Origin: Planctopirus limnophila DSM 3776
Lineage (GTDB): Bacteria > Planctomycetota > Planctomycetia > Planctomycetales > Planctomycetaceae
Length of the DNA stretch: 32,000 nt
Reading direction: 5' to 3'
NCBI RefSeq assembly: GCF_000092105.1
Contig: NC_014148.1
Span: 4,830,001 to 4,862,000, forward strand
A program made the position numbers and the translations under genes. Below the pieces are notes generated by a model. It was not told where the DNA came from and ran no database searches. It worked only from the letters and a program-made list of their open reading frames with translations. Shown here one piece after another: positions 12,336 to 22,840 of the stretch (positions are counted from its first letter, which is position 1; every line of letters begins with the position of its first letter).

Positions 12336-13550
12336 TTAGTCTCTGGATTTTTGACGGCTTTTCCAAAAGCTGTAAATCAGCCCATCCAGTCCAAACCAGC
12401 GACCGGTGGGCATGGCAGCAATCGCCAGAAGCGTTAAAGCTTCCATATTGACTTTGTTGACAATGTAATTGTGCTCGATCCCCGGAGCTTCGGGAGTTCC
12501 CGGCCAGGGTGGTGCTGCCAGATAAAACAGCATCAACAGACCGGCACCCCCCACAGCAGCAAACCGGGTTCCCAGACCGATAATCAGCAGGAAACCAAAA
12601 ATCGTCAGGCTCCACATGGTTCGCCAACTGAGAACTCGACCTTCGGTCCAAGGTTGAGGAACAGGCCCCATGGCCAGTTGATCTGAGGAAAGCAGCTTCT
12701 CGGCAGAATCACGCAGTTCCTGTTCAAGAGCCTGAACCGGCCCCACAACACGCCGGCGAAGATCCTGCAATTCACGCCACTGAGTTTCGAGATGATCCCA
12801 TTGGTACTTCGTTTTCGCCTGAGCATGATTGGCTTCGTAGCGTTCAATCTGTGCCTGATAAAGCTCAATGTCGCCAATCCGCTTCTCGATTTCTTTGCCG
12901 TCTTTCTCACGTTGAATGACGCCGACTCGCTCCGGATCGCCCTTCAACAGCACTGCCAGGCGCTCTTTGTAACTTAGCCTCGTTCCCTGATTGTAAAGCG
13001 AATTCACCGCATTCTTGTAAGCCACGGCAGGTGGTGTATCAGCCGCAGAAGCATCCACCAGACTCAAAAGTCGATCACGTTCGGCGGCCAGCAGATGCTG
13101 CTTCCCATCGACAGACAGGATCTTCTTCGCAGGATCGAACTGCGCCAGCCGACCCATTTTCTCCTGCGTAACTCCCGGAGGAAGTGCCTCGAGTTTCGCG
13201 CTGAACTGAGCAGGCCCATTGAGCAGATACATCAGGCGACCGGCTTCAGGAGCATCGTCAGCGATGTTGTAATGTGCCAGAAACCGATTGGCATAGTCGT
13301 CCCACTTGTTCGACATGTAATCGTAGTTGACCCAACGCAAGTCGTTGGGGTCGCCCAGCAGACTCCGGAAGAACCCACGCAAGGGCCCGGTTGCATTCTT
13401 CAGGTAGCCTTCGGCAGACCATGGTTGAGGCGACTTTTGCGTATCAATCTTCCACCAGCCTTCGTAAAGCAGGTGCCAACCGATAAACAATCGCAAAGTG
13501 ACCAGTAGCACACAGGCCAGTTGGGAGATCTTGCGGTCTTCGCCGTTCAC
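12336..13550 (-). CDS. DoxX/DoxD-like membrane protein interrupted by a soluble coiled-coil insert of about 270 aa
   Basis: GTG start with GAGG 7 nt upstream. The N-terminus LRLFIGWHLLYEGWWKI ... AEGYLKNATGPL resembles the first DoxX/DoxD helix and loop. Three further TM helices occur only after about residue 305 (WSLTIFGFLLIIGLGTRFAAVGGAGLLMLFYL ... ALTLLAIAAM). The segment between them is hydrophilic and heptad-rich. Confidence 0.6.
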   Translation of the reverse strand: MNGEDRKISQLACVLLVTLRLFIGWHLLYEGWWKIDTQKSPQPWSAEGYLKNATGPLRGFFRSLLGDPNDLRWVNYDYMSNKWDDYANRFLAHYNIADDAPEAGRLMYLLNGPAQFSAKLEALPPGVTQEKMGRLAQFDPAKKILSVDGKQHLLAAERDRLLSLVDASAADTPPAVAYKNAVNSLYNQGTRLSYKERLAVLLKGDPERVGVIQREKDGKEIEKRIGDIELYQAQIERYEANHAQAKTKYQWDHLETQWRELQDLRRRVVGPVQALEQELRDSAEKLLSSDQLAMGPVPQPWTEGRVLSWRTMWSLTIFGFLLIIGLGTRFAAVGGAGLLMLFYLAAPPWPGTPEAPGIEHNYIVNKVNMEALTLLAIAAMPTGRWFGLDGLIYSFWKSRQKSRD

Positions 13551-13795: not shown

Positions 13796-14884
13796 TCAGA
13801 ATGAGGCGGCAGGTGAGCGGGCAGGGTAAAGAATCTCTGGAGGGACGTTGATGATTGTGGCTTCCGCAGCCGTCTGACGACTGGACTGGGTAAACAACAA
13901 CACACCGACATCTGTTGAATTATCACAGAGAAGTCGAGTCTTTTCGACCCCCAGCACGAAAAAAGCCGTGGAAAGTGCGTCTGCCAGGGCCGCTCGTGCC
14001 GTTAATACGCTGACAGAAAGGACGTTTTCGACAGGCCAGCCCGTGCGAGGGTCCAGAATATGACCATACCGCCGTCCACCGACTCGAAACCCCTGTGCGG
14101 CTGTTCCGCTGGTTCCCAGGGCCTGATTCTTCAATAAAATCGTGCCCCACGAATGCTGCGGCAACAGAGGATCGCGTAATCCGACAGGCCAGCCGCCATG
14201 CCCCGCATGGTCTCCCAGAGCCAGGACACTGCTCTTTCCACCATGCACCAGCCAATGGTCGATCCCACGCGAACTCAAATGCCTCCCGGCACAATCGACC
14301 GCATATCCTTTACCAATCGCACCCAGATTGAGCTCCACACCGGGCTGGCGATATCGGACCGTTTTTGACGCCACATCCAACTGAATCTGGTCCATGCCCG
14401 TCAGTTGCCGTGCAGCTTCAAGTTCGGCTGTACTTGGCAGGCGACCTTCCTTCCGAGCTGTTCTCCAGACGGCAATCAGTGGCCCAGTGGTGGGATCAAA
14501 CGCCCCTTCCGTTTTCGCGACCAGATCCCGGGCTTCGATCAATAAGTCGAACAGTTCACCGCTGACTTCGACAGGCTCAAGCGCTGCCGTTTGATTAATG
14601 ATCGCCAGCTCGGCTTCGGGACGATAGATCGTCATCATCGCTTCGAGCTGATGCACCAGATCCAGTGCTTCGGAAGCGGCCTCCACCTGCAGAGCCGGGC
14701 CATCAGGATTCAGGATCACGTCGAAATGGCAGGCCATGGCTGTGGTTTGCAGCAGCAGGACTGGCCCACGAGTTGGTACCTCTGTAGTTGGCAAGTCGGC
14801 AGATCGAAGTGCCGCTTCAGCAGCAATCTGTTGTGCCAGCCGACCCGTCAGAAAATCACGTCGATCAGCCGAAGGATTCGTCAC
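13796..14884 (-). CDS. apbE: FAD:protein FMN transferase (ApbE family), Tat-type signal
   Basis: ApbE motifs are NLGAIGKGYAVD, ALGTSGTAAQGF and HILDPRTGWP. The longest ORF starts at a TTG at 15049. I prefer the GTG at 14884, which gives MTNPSADRRDFLTGRL (Tat motif near the N-terminus) and 362 aa, a typical ApbE length. The start remains uncertain. Confidence 0.8.
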   Translation of the reverse strand: MTNPSADRRDFLTGRLAQQIAAEAALRSADLPTTEVPTRGPVLLLQTTAMACHFDVILNPDGPALQVEAASEALDLVHQLEAMMTIYRPEAELAIINQTAALEPVEVSGELFDLLIEARDLVAKTEGAFDPTTGPLIAVWRTARKEGRLPSTAELEAARQLTGMDQIQLDVASKTVRYRQPGVELNLGAIGKGYAVDCAGRHLSSRGIDHWLVHGGKSSVLALGDHAGHGGWPVGLRDPLLPQHSWGTILLKNQALGTSGTAAQGFRVGGRRYGHILDPRTGWPVENVLSVSVLTARAALADALSTAFFVLGVEKTRLLCDNSTDVGVLLFTQSSRQTAAEATIINVPPEILYPARSPAASF

Positions 14885-15352
14885 TTCTGTTACCTGCCAA
14901 ACCTTTAATTGTTTTTGAATTATCTTCGGTGAACAGAGCCCAAAGCAACTGAGTCTCTCGGGATTGTCACTGAGAAAAGTGCGGCCAGAGAGGCGATCAA
15001 AATCAAAAATTCGCGATTCCTTCGCTAAAACGGTCTTGCCGTTGTTCAAAACTCAGTAAATAATCCCGACAGTTCGCACAAACGTAGTGCGACGGTAGAC
15101 CGGCTGGAGATGTGATCGGAGGTGACCCCGATCGAATCCGGCGGACGATCTATAAACTGTAGAAAGGAGGTGGTCGTTTGAATTGTCTTAGTTCTAGTCG
15201 CCAGCGAGGTGGCAAATCCTAGTGACAGTCGACGGACTGGCTTAGAGCCACCGTCTCGTAGCGGCCATGTCCTTAGAGAACGTTCTGCGAATTCGATTCT
15301 TCGTGATCCCGAATTCCACTAAGAACACTCGATAGGGTATCGCACGAGCCTC

Positions 15353-15390
15353 GGGGTTGGAAATCGCAAGGTTTCCAACCCCTCGCTCTT
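15353..15390 (+). terminator. Orphan intrinsic-terminator-like hairpin inside a 650-bp ORF-free region
   Basis: Perfect 11-bp stem GGGGTTGGAAA (15353-15363) / TTTCCAACCCC (15372-15382) with an 8-nt loop. On the + strand it is followed by TCGCTCTTT. No protein gene on either strand ends next to it. Confidence 0.45.
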
Positions 15391-15702
15391 TGATAGCCCC
15401 GCAATTTTACAGTCCCGCAAATTGAACCTCGCGCATCATCGGGCGACTTCCCCGAAGCACATCAGTTTGCATGAGACACTTAGACATCACAGATCGACGT
15501 CTGCAGTTTTCACAAGCCCTTAGCCTGGCTTCCCATCTTCAGCCTGCATTTCCGAAGAATTTTGCACGGCGTGTCACCTTTCTCACATCTTCCTGATCTC
15601 AATGGTCATGTGGCCTGACTGGCCAATCGAATTCGTGGCAAAGGGTATGAGCTTGCGAGAACTTTCTCTACGTTAAGCTCACCCGGTATTGAGGAAAATC
15701 AC

Positions 15703-16020
15703 ATGCATCGTCGTACCGTCTGGATGTGGGCTGGCGCAGGTTTGATGGGTCTGGTGGTTGGTTGTGGTCAAGCAGCCTCAACCACAAGTTCAGCCCCCGC
15801 AGGAGGAAGTGGTGCTGCCATGGCTCCCATGATGGGAGAGCCGAAGATGAGTGAACCGAAGATGAATGATGGCATGATGGCCGGCGAAAAAATGGCTGGC
15901 GAAAAGATGATGGCAGATCCCAAAATGTCAGATGGTATGATGGCACCAGCCATGAAAAGTGACGATAAGATGAAACCTCCCGCGATGATGGCACCAGATA
16001 TGGCCGGCGAGAAGAAGTAA
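15703..16020 (+). CDS. Methionine-rich lipoprotein (MrpX-like candidate periplasmic oxidant sink)
   Basis: GAGGAAA lies 6 nt upstream of the ATG. It has a signal peptide with a lipobox (LMGLVVGC). There are 18 Met in the last 68 residues, in short repeats (EPKMS/EPKMN, DGMMA x2, AGEKM x2). It sits directly upstream of msrP on the same strand. Confidence 0.75.
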   Translation: MHRRTVWMWAGAGLMGLVVGCGQAASTTSSAPAGGSGAAMAPMMGEPKMSEPKMNDGMMAGEKMAGEKMMADPKMSDGMMAPAMKSDDKMKPPAMMAPDMAGEKK

Positions 16021-16080
16021 GCTTCCGGCTGTCAGCACTGGCCCACATTCGTCTTTTGAAACGTCGAGAGTGAGGTGGGA

Positions 16081-17067
16081 ATGTCCACAGATCCAAAGAT
16101 TTCTGATGCGGAAGTAACACCGCCTGAACTCTATTTCAATCGCCGGCAGATCATGCGGGCAGCCATTGCATTGGGCACTGTCGGTGCCACAGTTGGCATC
16201 TATCGTGCATTCAAACAACCTGCCCAGAAAGAGGCCAACACCGCCGCGATCGAGGGTCTGGTACGTCCTGCTGATACGGATGCCAATCTGGCCAGCCAGG
16301 GGTTCAAAGTGGATGAACCTTTGACCCCCGAGATTGACATTATCAATTACAACAACTTCTACGAGTTCACCACTTCGAAAGAAGGGGTGGCCAGAGCCGC
16401 TGCAAATTTCAAGACTGAGGGCTGGAAAATCGACGTCGGTGGGTTGGTCGATAAGCCCACCACTTTCACCATGGATTCGCTGAAAGCACTCAGCCCACCC
16501 GAAGAACGCATCTATCGCATGCGCTGCGTCGAAGCCTGGTCGATGGTCATTCCCTGGGCCGGCATTCCCTTAGCCCGAATTCTTGAAGCCGTTCAGCCCC
16601 AATCTGCAGCCAAGTATGTGGCGTTCGAAACATTGTTCGATCCTGTCCGCATGCCCGGGCAGGCCTCGCCTGTTCTCGACTGGCCCTATGTCGAAGGTTT
16701 GCGGCTCGACGAAGCCATGCATCCTTTGACTCTGCTCGCAACAGGACTGTATGGCAAAGAATTACCACCCCAGGATGGTGCTCCCGTGCGGCTGGTCGTT
16801 CCCTGGAAGTACGGCTTCAAAGGCATCAAATCGATTGTCAAAATTTCGCTGTTGGCCGACGAACCCCCCACCAGTTGGAATCGGTTCGCACCTCACGAGT
16901 ACGGTTTCTTTGCGAATGTGAATCCGGAAGTCGATCATCCCCGCTGGAGCCAGGCGACTGAACAGCGTATTGGCGAACTGGGGCGTCGCAAAACCCTCAT
17001 GTTCAACGGTTACGAAGAGCAGGTCGCTTCTCTCTATACAGGAATGAATCTGCGAAAATTCTACTGA
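16081..17067 (+). CDS. msrP: Protein-methionine-sulfoxide reductase catalytic subunit MsrP (YedY; molybdopterin enzyme)
   Basis: Near-collinear by eye with E. coli MsrP: Tat motif FNRRQIM, then NNFYEF, ERIYRMRCVEAWSMVIPWAG, KYVAFETL, YVEGLRLDEAMHPLTLL, GAPVRLVVPWKYGFKGIKSIV, VDHPRWSQATE, NGYEEQVASLY. The start is ATG 16081 or GTG 16075. Confidence 0.9.
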   Translation: MSTDPKISDAEVTPPELYFNRRQIMRAAIALGTVGATVGIYRAFKQPAQKEANTAAIEGLVRPADTDANLASQGFKVDEPLTPEIDIINYNNFYEFTTSKEGVARAAANFKTEGWKIDVGGLVDKPTTFTMDSLKALSPPEERIYRMRCVEAWSMVIPWAGIPLARILEAVQPQSAAKYVAFETLFDPVRMPGQASPVLDWPYVEGLRLDEAMHPLTLLATGLYGKELPPQDGAPVRLVVPWKYGFKGIKSIVKISLLADEPPTSWNRFAPHEYGFFANVNPEVDHPRWSQATEQRIGELGRRKTLMFNGYEEQVASLYTGMNLRKFY

Positions 17068-17186
17068 TCCCTGTCCGCCGATAGGGGGCCGCCGCTCAGG
17101 AGCAGCCATCAGGGCAACTTTCCGTTGGCTTCGAAGATGGAATTGAATTGTCCGCGTTAATCCATGCATCTCGGGAAGGCCGCCGC

Positions 17187-18944
17187 GTGAGTGAGATTCA
17201 GTTCTGGAAGCTGCTGCTGATTATCAATGGTCTCATCCCCCTGGCACTTTTGGGCTGGGATGCGTTACAGGGTAAAACCGGTGGCAACGCCATTGGACAG
17301 GCCATCCATACCACAGGCTACGTCTCCCTGCTCTTCATCATGGCGTCCCTCGCTGTGACACCACTTCGAGTTGTCACGGGTTGGACGACCCCGGTCGCCT
17401 TTCGTCGTATTCTCGGGTTGTTTGGCTTCTTCTATGCGGCCATTCACTTCGGAATTTACTTTGGATTTGATCGCGCTTTGAGCCTGTCGAGTACCTTCGA
17501 CGAAATCGCGAAACGCAGGTTCCTACTTGTAGGCATGACCGCACTGATGCTCATGGTCCCCCTGGCTGTCACTTCCACAAACGCCATGATCAATCGACTC
17601 GGCGGCAAACGCTGGAAGCTCTTGCATCGCACAGCCTACATCGTAGGAGCACTGGCCGTCCTCCATTACTTCATGCAGGTGAAAGCCGATATTCGCCAGC
17701 CCCTCGCCTTTGCTGTTGTCCTGGGCGCCTTTCTGCTCATGCGTCTTCCTTTGAAAAAGCTCCTGCAAACTTCCAAGTCTCACTCTCCCGTCCACACCTC
17801 CGTCAAATCACCAGCCACTGCGACAGGTCGGCCCAGGTTCTGGACAGGTGAACTCAAGCTGGCGCGTGTCTTTCACGAAACTTCTCTTGTAAAGACCTTT
17901 CGCTTCGTGGCTCCCGATGGCAACAACCTGCCGTTTGCCTTTGAACCCGGACAGTACCTGACATTGAAAGTACTCATCGACGGAAAGTTCGTCAGTCGCT
18001 CGTACACCATCGCATCATCCCCCAGCCAATCGGGCTATTGCGAAATCTCTGTCAAGCGGGAGGAACATGGCCTCGTCTCGCGGTATCTGCACGAGCACCT
18101 GCAAGAAGGCGATCTTCTCTCAATATCGGCACCAGGTGGAAAGTTCTTCTTCAATGGTCGCCAGGCGAAAAGTGTCGTTTTCATCTCGGGTGGTGTGGGA
18201 ATCACACCTCTCATGTCGATGACTCGTTACCTCACCGATACCTGCTGGCCCGGCGAAATCCACTTTCTCGTTGTCGATCGATCACCCAAAGATTTGATCT
18301 TTTACGACGAATTGCGACATCTGGCCCATCGATTTCCCAATCTTCATGTGGCCGTCACATTGACTCGATCTCCAGAGATGGATGATTGGATGGTGCCGGA
18401 TGGCTGGCGGCGAGGTGAAGGACGGATCAATACCTCGTGGCTGCGCGAATGCCTGCACGATTGGCCCCAGCGCCAGGTCTATCTCTGCGGCCCCGACGCC
18501 ATGATGGATGCCACTCGTGAGCTTCTGACTGAACTTGGAGTCCCTGCCGAGCAGATCTTTACCGAAGCCTTCGTCTCACCAGCTGCACAAAAAGAGGCGA
18601 CTGAGATTCTGCCTGTGGAGTCTCCAGCCAATACCACAGCGACCTCCTCACGCGAACTCACCACGCACTCCGCAACTCCGGGCGAGTTTCAAGCCACCTT
18701 GCAATCGTCCCGGCAAACCATCGAATTGAGTGGCTACAACAATCTGCTCGAAGCGGCTGAAGCCGCGGGACTCGACTGGCCCTACGATTGCCGCTCCGGT
18801 GTTTGTGGCCAGTGCCGTGTGCGACTCATCAGTGGCGAAGTCGTGATGGATGTCCACGAAGCTCTTACGCCACAGGAACGAGCACAAGGCCATATCCTCC
18901 CCTGCCAGGCCCGCGCCTTCAGCCATCTGGTGATTGAGGCCTGA
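17187..18944 (+). CDS. msrQ: MsrQ (ferric-reductase-type heme-b membrane domain) fused to an FAD/NAD(P)H oxidoreductase and a plant-type 2Fe-2S ferredoxin domain
   Basis: The N-terminal 200 aa or so align with E. coli MsrQ, including the His ligand contexts (FYAAIHFGIYF; WKLLHRTAYIVGALAVLHYFMQV, with the two His 13 residues apart). Next come the FNR-type motifs RSYTIAS, VVFISGGVGITPLMSM and YLCGPDAMM. Last is a C-terminal ferredoxin, CRSGVCGQCRVRL...LPCQA. It is one uninterrupted ORF. The longest ORF starts at TTG 17148, and GTG 17187 has GGAAGG 7 nt upstream. Confidence 0.85.
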   Translation: MSEIQFWKLLLIINGLIPLALLGWDALQGKTGGNAIGQAIHTTGYVSLLFIMASLAVTPLRVVTGWTTPVAFRRILGLFGFFYAAIHFGIYFGFDRALSLSSTFDEIAKRRFLLVGMTALMLMVPLAVTSTNAMINRLGGKRWKLLHRTAYIVGALAVLHYFMQVKADIRQPLAFAVVLGAFLLMRLPLKKLLQTSKSHSPVHTSVKSPATATGRPRFWTGELKLARVFHETSLVKTFRFVAPDGNNLPFAFEPGQYLTLKVLIDGKFVSRSYTIASSPSQSGYCEISVKREEHGLVSRYLHEHLQEGDLLSISAPGGKFFFNGRQAKSVVFISGGVGITPLMSMTRYLTDTCWPGEIHFLVVDRSPKDLIFYDELRHLAHRFPNLHVAVTLTRSPEMDDWMVPDGWRRGEGRINTSWLRECLHDWPQRQVYLCGPDAMMDATRELLTELGVPAEQIFTEAFVSPAAQKEATEILPVESPANTTATSSRELTTHSATPGEFQATLQSSRQTIELSGYNNLLEAAEAAGLDWPYDCRSGVCGQCRVRLISGEVVMDVHEALTPQERAQGHILPCQARAFSHLVIEA

Positions 18945-19092
18945 CAAGCTGACCTGGACTCCTCTTGATGGGTTGATCTCACGCACCCACGCCGGCTTTG
19001 TGCTAACATAAGGCCTGAGCCGTCAGCCGATGATTTGTCGGTGAAATTCAAATTCTGCACGCTGACGTTGGCTCGTTCGAACTCCGCGCGGA

Positions 19093-21213
19093 ATGAATCA
19101 TCGGGAAAGCCTCGCAATGCAACCGGCGACCTTTGAAAGCCTTGTCGATTCACAGACTCCTGATCTCTGGCAGATTGAAACTCGTGGCCCTGGCCCGCAA
19201 GGTGCTTTGCCACTCACCGACGAACTGTTGAGAAATGCTCCCAGTGGCGATCTGTTTGGTCTCACTCAAAATGCCGGCATGGGCTGGCCTGTCGCCGAAG
19301 TCTTGAGGCCGCAATACCTCATTTTAAGTACACAAGGTGGTATTCGCGGCGAAGATGGCCGCCCGATTGCTCTGGGTTATCACACGGGCCATTACGAAGT
19401 CGGCCTGTTGATGCGTGCTGCTGCCGAAGAAATCGATCGTCTGGAGGGATTACCCTTTGCCGGGTATGTGAGCGATCCTTGTGATGGCCGTACCCAAGGC
19501 ACAACGGGGATGATGGACAGCCTGCCCTATCGGAATGACGCCGCCATTGTGCTCCGCCGGTTGATCAGGTCACTCCCAGTGCGGGAAGGTGTCGTGGGTG
19601 TGGCTACGTGCGACAAAGGCCTTCCCGCCATGATGATGGCACTGGCTTCGATGCACGATCTGCCGTGTGTGATTGTCCCTGGCGGAGTCACTTTGCCTCC
19701 TGTTTCGGGCGAAGATACCGGGAAAGTCCAGAGTATCGGTGCCCGTTATGCCAAAGGCGAAATCTCGCTGGAACATGCTGCCGAAGCAGGCTGCCGCGCC
19801 TGTGGTTCAGCAGGTGGTGGTTGCCAGTTTCTCGGGACAGCCGCCACGTCGCAAATTGTGGCTGAAGCGTTAGGAATGTCTTTACCACATGCCGCTCTGG
19901 CACCTTCAGGCCAGCCGATCTGGTTGGATATTGCCGTCCGTTCAGCCAGAGCTGTCGTGACACAGCGGCTGACAGGTCTTTCGATGAACAAGATCCTCAC
20001 TGCCGATTCGCTGCATAATGCGATGGTCGTGCATGCAGCCTGCGGTGGCTCGACCAACTTGCTGCTGCATATCCCGGCTATCGCCTTTGCTGCCGGTCTC
20101 GAGCGGCCCAAGGTCGAAGAGTGGAACCGGATCAACCTCGCGACACCCCGGTTGGTGGATTGCCTTCCCAATGGGCCCGTAGGTCACCCCACTGTGCGAT
20201 TCTTCCTGGCTGGAGGTGTTCCGGAACTCATGCTCCATTTGCGTGCCTTAGGCCTCCTCAAGCTGAATGCTTTGACAGCCACTGGCAAACCACTCGGTGA
20301 CGTTCTCGAATGGTGGGAAAAGAGTGAACGTCGCGAACGTGTCCGTCAGGTATTGCATGAGCGGGATGGCGTCGATCCCGATGACGTGGTGATGCCCCCC
20401 GCACTGGCGAAGGCTCGTGGATTGACCAGTACTGTCTGCTTCCCTCGCGGGAATATTGCCCCCGAAGGTTCGGTTGTCAAAGCCACTTCCATCGACAAGT
20501 CCACATTGGATGCGAATGGTGTCTACCACAAGATTGGCCGCGTGCGGTTTTTTGCAACGGAACGGGAAGCGATTCGTGCGGTCAAAGGCCAGTCTCAGCC
20601 CGCAGTCCAGGCAGGAGATATTCTCATTCTTGCCGGGCGTGGGCCCTTGGGCTGTGGGATGGAAGAAACGTATCAAATCACGTCCAGCCTGAGGTATCTC
20701 CCCTTCGGAAAAGAGGTGACATTGATCACGGATGCCCGCTTTTCGGGGGTTTCGACGGGGGCCTGCATTGGTCACGTCGGCCCGGAAGCTCTCGCGGGTG
20801 GCCCGATTGGGAAACTCCGCGATAATGATCTCATCGAAGTACGGATCGATACGCGGAACTTGACGGGAAGTATAAACTTCATTGGCGAAGGTGATGCCAC
20901 GTTCACAGCCGAACATGGTGCTAGAATTCTAGCAGGGCGTACACCTCACCCGAAATTAGCTCCAGACCCAGAACTTCCGGCCGACACCAGGCTCTGGGCA
21001 GCATTGCAGCAGTTAGGAGGCGGAACCTGGGGAGGATGTGTCTACGATGTCGACGCCATTGTCAACGCCCTCGCAAATGCACCTCGGATGGGGACTGCTC
21101 CCTGCAGTTTATCTGGTGAAGGAAGTTCCAGCAGCAACCCCGCGGCTGGCTCCTCAAATCCAGAATCCGGCACAGACCTGCTCGCCACCACGCATGGACG
21201 AAGCAGCTGCTGA
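19093..21213 (+). CDS. IlvD/Edd-family sugar-acid dehydratase, YjhG/YagF (D-xylonate dehydratase)-like
   Basis: Collinear by eye with E. coli YjhG: [121 protein letters not shown] low-complexity tail of about 45 aa (S/G/P/N-rich) extends past the homologous end. Confidence 0.88.
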
Positions 21214-21319
21214 TGTTGATCAATCGGAGCATCGCCAGAACATGAACTGCCTTCGTGCCATGTTTGCGGCTCTGAGCAAGCATGCCTTACCAATCCTCAA
21301 TGCCCCATTAGCTTTCGGG

Positions 21320-22840
21320 ATGAGTACAAGACGGCATCTGGCGAATCTCTTGATCGCGTTGGCACTTCTGCTGATCGCTGGTTTTTTTGCTCCGCTCACC
21401 CAGGCCAGCGATTCACCCACAGTCTTAATTCCACAGCAGGCCAATCCTCAGGAAGTCACCGCAGAGGATGGCTATCGGATCCTCAAATCCAAACCTTTTC
21501 TTCCGGCAGACTTTCATGATCGCCACCTGGAGCAGCTCTGGACCGTCTGGCCCGAGCCCTGGAAAACGAAGTATGCACAGGCTGCCCCGCACGAGAAGCG
21601 GCAGCTTCTCTTCTCGTACTATGGCTTGATTGAAGATCCCCAGCAAAAGTCTGCCGAATCCAGCAAGGAGAATGCTGTTTCTGGGACTCCCGCATTGGGA
21701 TATCTCAAAACAGAATCCGGGAATTGGGTGATGACCTGCCTCGCCTGCCACGGCGGTAAAGTGGCCGGCCAATCACAGGCGGGCCTTCCCAATTCACACT
21801 TTGCCCTGCAAACGCTTGCCGAAGATCTTCGTCAGGTGAAGCTCGCTAACAAAGAGACTCTCGCACATCTGGAAACGGCCTCACTGACGATTCCACTCAA
21901 TGTGACCAATGGCACGACCAATTCCGTCATCTTTGGAGTGATCCTGGGGACCTTCCGCCGCCCGGACATGTCGGTTGATCTGGCACGAACAGTTCCGCCA
22001 GTCATTCATCACGATGTCGATGCTCCACCCTTCTGGAATGTCAAATATAAAACCTCGCTCTACTGCGATGGTTTCGCTCCCAAGTATCACCGCCCTCTCA
22101 TGCAGTTCATGCTCTTGCCAGTGAACGGCCAATCGACAATCTACAGTTGGGAAGATGATTTCCGAGCCATCGAAAAATGGATCGAATCTGTCGAGGCACC
22201 GGCCTATCCCTTCCCCGTCGATGACACACTGGCCGCCTCAGGCCGAGTCGTCTTCGAGAAAAACTGTGCCAGCTGTCATGGCACTTATGGCCAGGGAACC
22301 CTCGTTTCAGATCGGGAATTTCCCGCCGACACCCCGCTGCATGCGCTCACCACAGCCAAACGCGATGTTGTGAAGTACGAACAGAAAGTCATTCCCATCA
22401 GCGATGTGGGAACTGATCCGGTTCGACTGCAGGCATTAACGGCTACACATCGCCAATGGATGAAAGATGGCTGGATGAGCGATTACGGCAATCATCCAGT
22501 GATCATCGAACCCGCCGGTTATGTCGCACCTCCACTGGTCGGTATCTGGGCCAGTGCTCCGTATTTTCATAATGGCAGCGTCCCCACGCTCTGGCATGTC
22601 CTTCATCCCGAGAATCGCCCTGCCGTCTGGAAACGAACTGAAAATGGTTACGATACGAACAAAGTAGGTCTCGAAGTGGAAGAGTTCGGCCGATTGCCGA
22701 CAGGTATCAAAACTCCCGCTGAAAGACGCCGCTACTTCGATACGAAGCTCAAAGGCAAGTCATCTGTCGGGCACGATTACCCGAGTGCACTGACCGCCGA
22801 TGAGAAAAAAGCTCTCCTGGAATACCTCAAGACTTTGTGA
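21320..22840 (+). CDS. Exported diheme c-type cytochrome (distant cytochrome-c-peroxidase/MauG-like features)
   Basis: ATG 21320 gives a signal peptide, MSTRRHLANLLIALALLLIAGFFAPLTQA. There are two CXXCH motifs (CLACHGG, CASCHGT). SAPYFHNGSVPTLWHVL resembles the conserved PYFHDGS..TL segment of the CCP/MauG family. The upstream part of ORF 21038.. overlaps the dehydratase and is probably not translated. Confidence 0.7.
   Translation: MSTRRHLANLLIALALLLIAGFFAPLTQASDSPTVLIPQQANPQEVTAEDGYRILKSKPFLPADFHDRHLEQLWTVWPEPWKTKYAQAAPHEKRQLLFSYYGLIEDPQQKSAESSKENAVSGTPALGYLKTESGNWVMTCLACHGGKVAGQSQAGLPNSHFALQTLAEDLRQVKLANKETLAHLETASLTIPLNVTNGTTNSVIFGVILGTFRRPDMSVDLARTVPPVIHHDVDAPPFWNVKYKTSLYCDGFAPKYHRPLMQFMLLPVNGQSTIYSWEDDFRAIEKWIESVEAPAYPFPVDDTLAASGRVVFEKNCASCHGTYGQGTLVSDREFPADTPLHALTTAKRDVVKYEQKVIPISDVGTDPVRLQALTATHRQWMKDGWMSDYGNHPVIIEPAGYVAPPLVGIWASAPYFHNGSVPTLWHVLHPENRPAVWKRTENGYDTNKVGLEVEEFGRLPTGIKTPAERRRYFDTKLKGKSSVGHDYPSALTADEKKALLEYLKTL

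Follow-up and report, generated by a model that had tools for sequence, protein, structure and literature searches.

A candidate methionine-redox module of Planctopirus limnophila in which MsrQ is fused to a predicted NAD(P)H reductase and a ferredoxin domain

The 32,000-nt stretch of Planctopirus limnophila DSM 3776 DNA analysed here (contig NC_014148.1, positions 4,830,001 to 4,862,000; hereafter the window) carries on its plus strand three successive genes, encoding a methionine (Met)-rich lipoprotein, the molybdenum cofactor (Moco)-dependent protein-methionine-sulfoxide (Met-O) reductase MsrP and an unusually long MsrQ. In this MsrQ the membrane domain is continued, in the same polypeptide, by an FNR-like flavin- and NAD-binding module and a 2Fe-2S ferredoxin domain. 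We consider it moderately likely that the three genes form an envelope methionine-redox defence module, made up of MsrP, the fused MsrQ and, as an accessory, the Met-rich lipoprotein. The identities of the parts and the functional coupling of msrP and the fused msrQ are strongly backed by comparative genomics; that the module runs a catalytic Met/Met-O cycle on NAD(P)H and does without quinones is our inference. The parts of the module, numbered by position in the window, are the following (pLDDT, predicted local distance difference test score):

15703-16020 (+), gene of the Met-rich lipoprotein, 105 aa, MrpX/BcrX-like in composition
15703-15765 (+), predicted signal peptide with lipobox VVG/C, Cys21 being the would-be lipidated residue (read from the translation)
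15820-16017 (+), Met-rich degenerate pentapeptide-repeat region, aa 40-105, 27% Met (composition, lag-5 periodicity)
16081-17067 (+), msrP, for a predicted Moco-dependent periplasmic protein-Met-O reductase exported by twin-arginine translocation (Tat), 328 aa (NCBIfam, Pfam, E. coli alignment, structure 1XDQ)
17187-18944 (+), fused msrQ, for a 585-aa protein with an FNR-like reductase and a 2Fe-2S ferredoxin part (Pfam, NCBIfam, homologues)
17187-17777 (+), MsrQ/YedZ-type ferric-reductase membrane domain, six transmembrane (TM) helices (alignment, invariant columns, hydropathy, AlphaFold2)
17775-17831 (+), linker predicted to be disordered, aa 210-228 (pLDDT <50; no consensus residue)
17871-18518 (+), FNR-like module, predicted to be cytoplasmic, FAD_binding_6 and NAD_binding_1 (Pfam, invariant motifs, solved relatives)
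18576-18677 (+), linker predicted to be disordered, ahead of the ferredoxin domain, aa 477-510 (pLDDT <50; no consensus residue)
18696-18917 (+), plant-type 2Fe-2S ferredoxin domain, aa 517-590 (Pfam, invariant Cys)

The open reading frame (ORF) listing gave plus-strand ORFs at 15703-16020, 16075-17067 and 17148-18944. An earlier reading made from the letters of the DNA (the sequence-only reading) had described three co-directional genes with short gaps, and this layout was confirmed: the first gap measures 60 nt and the second 119 nt, which the RefSeq start of msrQ shortens to 80 nt. The longest msrP ORF opens with GTG at 16075, whereas the likeliest start is the ATG at 16081, which has a ribosome-binding site ahead of it and agrees with the 328-aa public record named MsrP (ADG69581.1 / WP_013112012.1). 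For msrQ the public records differ, RefSeq starting at TTG 17148 (598 aa) and GenBank/UniProt at GTG 17187 (585 aa). The GTG is the likeliest start; the product then begins with MSEIQFWK, as in homologue P0002, and the start of the homologues coincides with that of the shorter form. The fused protein matches WP_148227192.1 at 100% identity; ADG69582.1 (UniProt D5SWI9) records it in the 585-aa form, and UniProt has already named it MsrQ automatically. A terminator scan of 14900-19300 detected no plus-strand terminator-like hairpin between the three genes. Over the same interval a consensus promoter scan yielded no convincing sigma-70 promoter and an Rfam scan no RNA family. A sigma/anti-sigma pair adjoining the three genes was not found in the window.

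Profile searches placed Ferric_reduct at residues 57-170, FAD_binding_6 at 242-334, NAD_binding_1 at 345-457 and Fer2 at 517-590 of the third product, as the sequence-only reading had predicted for a fused MsrQ. Residues 16-210 passed the NCBIfam equivalog model of MsrQ, NF003831 (150.4 bits, cut-off 130), and the membrane domain is 31% identical to E. coli MsrQ. In the alignment R86/R87 and H160 fall on E. coli R77/R78 and H151, residues of the FMN site, and H100/H173 fall on H91/H164; these five residues, whose E. coli counterparts hold one haem and an FMN, do not vary across 25 fused homologues. The domain thus carries the YedZ signature, Arg(-Arg) in TM3 replacing the first His, plus three His, and not that of the NOX type, in which four His bind two haems in TM3 and TM5: only three His are invariant, and the first position is Arg. 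According to Zhang (2013) three His and an Arg for the first His define the YedZ/STEAP signature, whereas long bacterial ferric reductase domain (FRD) proteins that bear a dehydrogenase have four His. By that definition the domain is of the YedZ type, long nonetheless. The product also departs from the stand-alone MsrQ form of about 200 aa: it has about 370 extra residues with FAD_binding_6, NAD_binding_1 and Fer2, which make it a fused variant of the MsrQ/YedZ family. Six hydrophobic TM helices were seen in the MsrQ domain by hydropathy and also as AlphaFold2 helices. The K/R-rich N-terminus and the segment that follows TM6 place both ends, and hence the dehydrogenase, on the predicted cytoplasmic side.

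The reductase part is of the phthalate dioxygenase reductase (PDR) type in its domain order (flavin-NAD-Fer2) and in its RxYS/T, GGxGxxP and four-Cys motifs. The FAD_binding_6 motif is RSYTIAS and that of NAD_binding_1 is GGVGITP; R284/Y286/T287, G348-P354 and the four Cys of the 2Fe-2S domain (C548/C553/C556/C586) are all invariant in the 25 homologues. The NOX-type dehydrogenase domain NAD_binding_6 reached only 21.2 bits, below its cut-off of 22.2, FAD_binding_6/NAD_binding_1 being found instead. The closest solved relatives of the module are the FNR-superfamily enzymes MMOR, Hmp, BenC and PDR, and the same flavin-NAD-Fer2 order occurs among the best structural matches, namely 2PIA (phthalate dioxygenase reductase), 7YLR and CYP116B reductase domains. 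The module also matched the NCBIfam model of the flavin reductase Fre (1.4e-18). In the AlphaFold2 model of the whole fusion the domains were confident and the linkers disordered, with a predicted template modelling score (pTM) of 0.48. A Foldseek search with this model re-identified only the known domains, and SpNOX and DUOX were among its matches.

The distribution of the fusion was followed in a genome scan with one genome per species. Of the two search patterns used, one fell within a generic ferredoxin motif; from the 533 relatives reported we therefore claim only the full-length fused loci, of which there are at least 80; the 80th still spans residues 16-598. The fused homologues make up at least 120 protein clusters, and all of those listed have the same four Pfam domains, at 47-53% identity. 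The loci come from at least five phyla and belong to Planctomycetota (Planctomycetaceae, Pirellulales, Isosphaeraceae, Gemmata-like, Phycisphaerae), Verrucomicrobiota, Acidobacteriota, Myxococcota and a metagenome-assembled genome (MAG) of Fibrobacteria. At every informative locus (79 of 79) msrP stands directly upstream on the same strand, at a distance of -19 to +921 nt, mostly below 100 nt; L037, with only 77 nt of upstream sequence, was left out. Gene comparison could hardly show two genes more tightly coupled, which excludes an artefact and makes an MsrP-independent role unlikely. Judged by this comparison of genomes the fusion is real and old, and the msrP-msrQ pair is the conserved core.

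The earlier identification of the second gene as msrP proved sound. Its product scored 459.8 bits with the NCBIfam equivalog NF003767 (cut-off 207), residues 3-330 covering profile positions 5-320 of 320, and the Pfam Oxidored_molyb domain was found by profile search. Its identity to E. coli MsrP is 51% along the entire length. The alignment revealed the Tat motif RRQIM within NRRQIMRAA, and the conserved motif of the Mo-ligand cysteine, RMRCVEAWS, in the stretch YRMRCVEAWSMV. The best solved structure was YedY, 1XDQ (E 4e-100). The protein is MsrP by homology, and as such would be active as a Met-O reductase.

The product of the first gene begins with MHRRTVWMWAGAGLMGLVVG followed by CGQ; the n-region is positive, the core hydrophobic, and the lipobox reads V-V-G-C. 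Of its 105 aa, 21 are Met; the count for the mature part is 18 in 85 residues (21%), and Met makes up 27% of the last 66 aa, in line with the figure of about one quarter that had been given for the C-terminal region. At a background of 3% Met the binomial probability of this count is 7e-11, and no other ORF of the window approaches such Met richness. The Met residues are spaced with a period of 5 (lag-5 count 10, shuffle p ~0.0008). Charged residues make up 25% of the mature protein, His is absent, and the remainder is of low complexity. A 105-aa gene was also called at this position in the independent assemblies L082 and L084. The orthologues in L001, L002, L003 and L071 vary in their number of repeat units but stay in frame; among those of Planctopirus-like genomes MAGEK units have been gained or lost. 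Exact look-up of the 105-, 98- and 91-aa versions in a collection of 15 billion proteins returned none of them. By description the lipoprotein is of the MrpX/BcrX kind, being small, secreted, 21% Met, charged, of period 5 and encoded 60 nt upstream of msrP, and it most likely acts like MrpX/BcrX.

At the related loci Met-rich ORFs were sought among six-frame stop-to-stop segments with at least 7 Met per 40-residue window; 73 loci had enough upstream sequence. At 28 of the 73 (one, at L064, seems spurious) a same-strand Met-rich ORF ended at most 700 nt ahead of msrP, and a further 6 have one within 2.5 kb upstream. The combination of sink, reductase and fused MsrQ put forward in the sequence-only reading therefore does recur (34/73), but it is not integral, as about half of the loci lack the Met-rich gene. 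Of the 6934 ORFs of 40 aa or longer at these loci, 39 were Met-rich by a somewhat stricter measure, and 24 of the 39 lay just upstream of msrP. A Met-rich secreted ORF recurs just upstream of msrP far above chance.

Most of the upstream Met-rich ORFs of the related loci have an xxGC lipobox. Their repeat types differ by lineage: we found MMKDDK, KMGSD/KMSSD and a family of about 260 aa with 24-27% Met, and in Verrucomicrobiota and Acidobacteriota G/N/S-rich Met-rich repeats of the NMS type. Since the repeats are non-homologous across lineages, composition and position are conserved, not sequence. With the model TIGR02953 (MXKDX; cut-off 41 bits) positional counterparts scored 37.9 (L024), 22.2 (L009) and 17.7 bits (L005). 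At four of the six loci with a more distant Met-rich ORF (L019, L020, L063 and L062) a DUF1223 or redoxin gene lies between that ORF and msrP. The order in Schlesneria (L019, L020, L063) is Met-rich lipoprotein, DUF1223, msrP, msrQ, and in a Limnoglobus MAG a redoxin lipoprotein is inserted between the Met-rich gene and msrP.

A second, larger family of Met-rich secreted proteins was observed upstream of the msrP-fused-msrQ pair. Its members are about 260-290 aa long, contain 22-27% Met when full-length, have no Pfam match and share a conserved non-repetitive core that includes MQMLFQELVARHIA. The BLAST cluster containing this family covers 8 loci. Members upstream of msrP, in the coordinates of their own loci, are:

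L013, 4109-4540 (+), larger Met-rich family
L022, 9-659 (+), larger Met-rich family
L023, 3774-4562 (+), larger Met-rich family
L024, 2129-3001 (+), larger Met-rich family

Other genes that recur beside the fused loci encode secreted AhpC/TSA-redoxin proteins (three clusters, of 15, 12 and 5 loci), extracytoplasmic function (ECF) sigma factors (clusters of 13 and 9 loci), DUF1223 proteins (12 loci) and MsrB-MsrA fusions (5 loci). No copper-handling family was present among the recurrent neighbours of msrP-msrQ. These neighbours are genes of envelope redox. Together with the domain assignments, the pairing with msrP and the recurring Met-rich ORFs, they fit a methionine-based oxidant-defence module that would be fed from the cytoplasm. 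The DUF1223 protein, secreted and with a CSSCP motif, is encoded within or beside the cassette at its 12 loci, including the three of Schlesneria, a placement that suggests a role in envelope redox defence.

In the mechanism that we propose, MsrP would be exported by Tat and would reduce periplasmic protein Met-O through its molybdenum cofactor. Electrons would pass from NAD(P)H to FAD, to the 2Fe-2S cluster and to the flavin site on the inner leaflet (R86/R87/H160), then through haem b (H100/H173) to the Moco of MsrP, with Met-O as the last acceptor. The role proposed in E. coli for a separate flavin reductase, Fre, would here fall to the tethered ferredoxin domain. The long unconserved linker ahead of the ferredoxin domain suggests that this domain may be a mobile one-electron shuttle from FAD to the membrane domain. 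The lipoprotein would form an intrinsically disordered, membrane-tethered array whose thioethers are the first target of HOCl, chloramines and oxidants of that kind. MsrP would then reduce these thioethers again, and in this way cytoplasmic reducing power would go into quenching oxidants at the envelope. In its full form the proposal is more tentative than the assignment of the module: the fused MsrQ might be a self-sufficient, quinone-independent NAD(P)H:protein-Met-O reductase chain, might constitute together with the lipoprotein a catalytic oxidant-quenching shield on the membrane, and might serve as a Rosetta-stone pointer to cytoplasmic NAD(P)H, rather than the respiratory quinone pool, as the electron source of MsrPQ generally.

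Several points weigh against a defence module with a dedicated lipoprotein sink. A same-strand Met-rich gene within 2.5 kb upstream is missing from 39 of the 73 fused loci; a dedicated sink is thus not required, and the lipoprotein is an optional accessory. The lipoprotein did not match TIGR02953 even at E up to 10, and its membership of that family was rejected. Charged residues make up 25% of it, compared with 44% in Azospira MrpX (PMC4436054). Met-rich tracts can also bind Cu(I). With a pTM of 0.48 and disordered linkers the fusion model yields no readable packing of the domains, the docking of the ferredoxin domain beneath the membrane flavin/haem site included. The short gaps and the absence of terminator-like sites do no more than suggest co-transcription of the three genes.

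The alternative that survives best, although we think it unlikely, is ordinary MsrPQ repair of many envelope proteins, with a lipoprotein that binds or buffers Cu(I)/Ag(I), its thioethers kept reduced by MsrP as has been shown for E. coli CusF, or that is one substrate among many. E. coli MsrPQ functions without any Met-rich partner, as would the many fused loci that have none upstream. Met-rich domains are established Cu(I) recruiters (PMC11494321), and in E. coli the copper-binding CusF is protected by MsrPQ under copper stress (PMC9302797). The mature lipoprotein, however, has neither His nor Cys, and its composition and period-5 repeats are like those of the MXKDX/MrpX type. The same position is filled by unrelated Met-rich sequences in different lineages. 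Moreover, genes for copper export, a multicopper oxidase or a CusF-like protein are missing from the recurrent neighbours, which comprise thiol peroxidases/redoxins, DUF1223, MsrBA and ECF sigma factors. We prefer the methionine-redox defence module.

A very improbable alternative is a NOX-like or ferric-reductase-like protein whose acceptor is O2, Fe(III) or another periplasmic compound and whose adjacency to msrP is incidental. Long FRD+FNR forms such as SpNOX reduce cytochrome c and produce superoxide (PMC5676040), iron-related clusters are known to include MsrQ-like proteins that bear NAD-binding domains (PMC8238504), and the Foldseek matches to SpNOX and DUOX point the same way. Against it, the pairing with msrP holds at all informative loci across phyla, the membrane domain passes the curated MsrQ cut-off and has Arg for the first His with three His rather than the four-His NOX pattern, and the dehydrogenase is of the PDR and not of the NOX type. 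An assembly, frameshift or annotation artefact in the fusion or the small ORF is already refuted (the sequence-only reading had named an assembly or frameshift artefact in the fusion as a danger to its claim): although the exact 105-aa sequence is absent from the large protein collection and the public start codons disagree (585 vs 598 aa), the four-domain protein occurs in at least 120 clusters and in at least 80 species-level genomes from independent assemblies, and the 105-aa gene is called at the same position in independent assemblies, with orthologues that keep the frame despite changes in repeat number.

Some further features were observed in the window:

12336-13550 (-), next to apbE, a 404-aa protein with a DoxX/DoxD-like membrane part at its C-terminal end only
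13796-15049 (-), apbE, for an ApbE flavin transferase with a Tat-like RRDFLTGR motif, divergent from the msrPQ module
15066-15395 (+), non-coding segment of about 330 nt between apbE and the Met-rich gene
21038-22840 (+), secreted protein of 600 aa that has a RoxA-like cytochrome-c domain (rubber-oxygenase-like fold family) and two cytochrome c motifs; in the ORF calls it overlaps with the end of that for xylonate dehydratase

The non-coding segment is the best-conserved part of a 13-kb comparison with Planctopirus hydrillae: identity is 100% over 15095-15244, 97.3% over 15245-15394 and 91.8% overall. Its plus strand folds with -132.5 kcal/mol (z = -5.0; minus strand z = -2.4). At the 3' end a perfect 13-bp hairpin is followed by CUCUUUGAU and resembles a terminator. 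No Rfam family, tRNA or tmRNA was matched in the segment. Among the 80 loci listed the element was found only in those of Planctopirus, and it might act as a long operon leader or encode an unknown small RNA.

The true start of apbE is probably about 55 codons inside the longest ORF; a 362-aa form was called in L082. We considered a link to ApbE, as in the flavinylated MsrQ-like systems of Meheust 2021 (PMC8238504), and rejected it. Among the loci listed, apbE beside the fused msrPQ genes is conserved only within Planctopirus, in the relatives L001 and L002, and no FMN_bind protein is present, so the adjacency is incidental. The Dps/ferritin, ExbBD, two-component system, DoxX, xylonate dehydratase and RoxA-like cytochrome c genes of the window were likewise set aside; they are not recurrent neighbours at the related loci.

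The sequence-only reading had regarded the combined arrangement as uncharacterised. This holds for the fused version, of which we found no description, but not for the set of sink, MsrP and MsrQ as such, which is known in unfused form (PMC8315932, PMC4436054). The literature searched, its coverage not extending to von Rozycki 2004 and Juillan-Binard 2017, contained no MsrQ with the YedZ signature fused to a PDR-type FNR and a 2Fe-2S domain. Nor did it describe an invariable pairing of such a fusion with msrP, or its frequent pairing with Met-rich lipoproteins outside Proteobacteria. YedZ can reportedly be fused to electron carriers, as the title of von Rozycki 2004 has it.

Two groups of known proteins share the architecture of the fusion in part. 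Like SpNOX and the proteins of Actinobacterial MsrQ-like/ApbE clusters, it joins a six-TM ferric-reductase domain to a C-terminal NAD(P)H dehydrogenase in one chain; those proteins, however, have four haem-ligating His (two haems), a NOX-type FAD/NAD part, no ferredoxin domain and no MsrP partner. With the PDR type (class IA) and CYP116B it has in common the succession of flavin, NAD and C-terminal 2Fe-2S domains and the motifs RxYS/T, GGxGxxP and CX4CX2C...C, and, as in the CYP116B P450 enzymes, the fusion would render the acceptor self-sufficient. Unlike in PDR and CYP116B, the acceptor would be a membrane cytochrome b passing electrons across the membrane and not a soluble oxygenase, and the reductase is C-terminal to the membrane domain, with long disordered linkers.

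As a cassette, the closest parallels are yedY1Z1-mrpX of Azospira suillum, which is under SigF control (PMC4436054), and bcrXQP of Brucella melitensis, which is co-transcribed, HOCl-induced and protective (PMC8315932). In these too a secreted protein of about 20% Met is encoded together with MsrP and MsrQ in a set of three genes, and the Met-rich partner has been proposed to be a sacrificial sink recycled by MsrP (PMC4436054, PMC8315932). The pentapeptide periodicity of the repeats is common to the MrpX/BcrX type and the window lipoprotein, and ECF sigma factors, which govern the HOCl-defence cassettes of Azospira and Brucella, are encoded near fused loci. The differences are that MsrQ is unfused in Azospira and Brucella and fused in Planctopirus limnophila, that MrpX is a soluble periplasmic peptide whereas its counterpart here is a predicted lipoprotein, and that in Planctopirus limnophila the Met-rich gene comes first. 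Through the recurrent but divergent Met-rich lipoproteins the sacrificial-methionine idea of MrpX/BcrX would come to include membrane-tethered forms and, outside Proteobacteria, would reach Planctomycetota, Verrucomicrobiota and Acidobacteriota.

The comparison with E. coli MsrPQ bears on the source of the electrons. The sequence-only reading had taken quinone-derived electrons as a settled precedent for E. coli MsrPQ. The quinone pool was proposed as the source for MsrQ by Gennaris 2015, and a 2026 review still names quinols as the donor for Mo-containing sulfoxide reductases (PMC13488963), but the precedent is now disputed: in E. coli MsrQ the haem (-242 mV) and the FMN (-340 mV) have potentials too low to be reduced by quinols, and the protein is reduced by Fre, an enzyme of the FNR family (PMC12525009). 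R77, R78 and H151 are required for FMN binding in this 211-aa protein, which is described as being without a dehydrogenase domain (PMC12525009); in the MsrQ field MsrQ is regarded as the only prokaryotic FRD protein with a known function. The Planctopirus limnophila system resembles that of E. coli in its MsrP (51% identity), its MsrQ domain (31%) and the order msrP, then msrQ, and, to judge by its domains, in that an FNR-superfamily enzyme would supply NAD(P)H electrons to the membrane cytochrome. It differs in that the FNR-type reductase is covalently joined to MsrQ and has an extra 2Fe-2S domain, and in the presence of a Met-rich gene, which the E. coli msrPQ operon lacks. The main value of the natural MsrQ-dehydrogenase fusion is the support it gives to NAD(P)H over quinol as the electron source of MsrQ; its occurrence beside msrP in at least 80 species of several phyla is independent genomic evidence for this disputed route. 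As a single polypeptide it would also lend itself to reconstitution of the whole chain and to determination of its structure.

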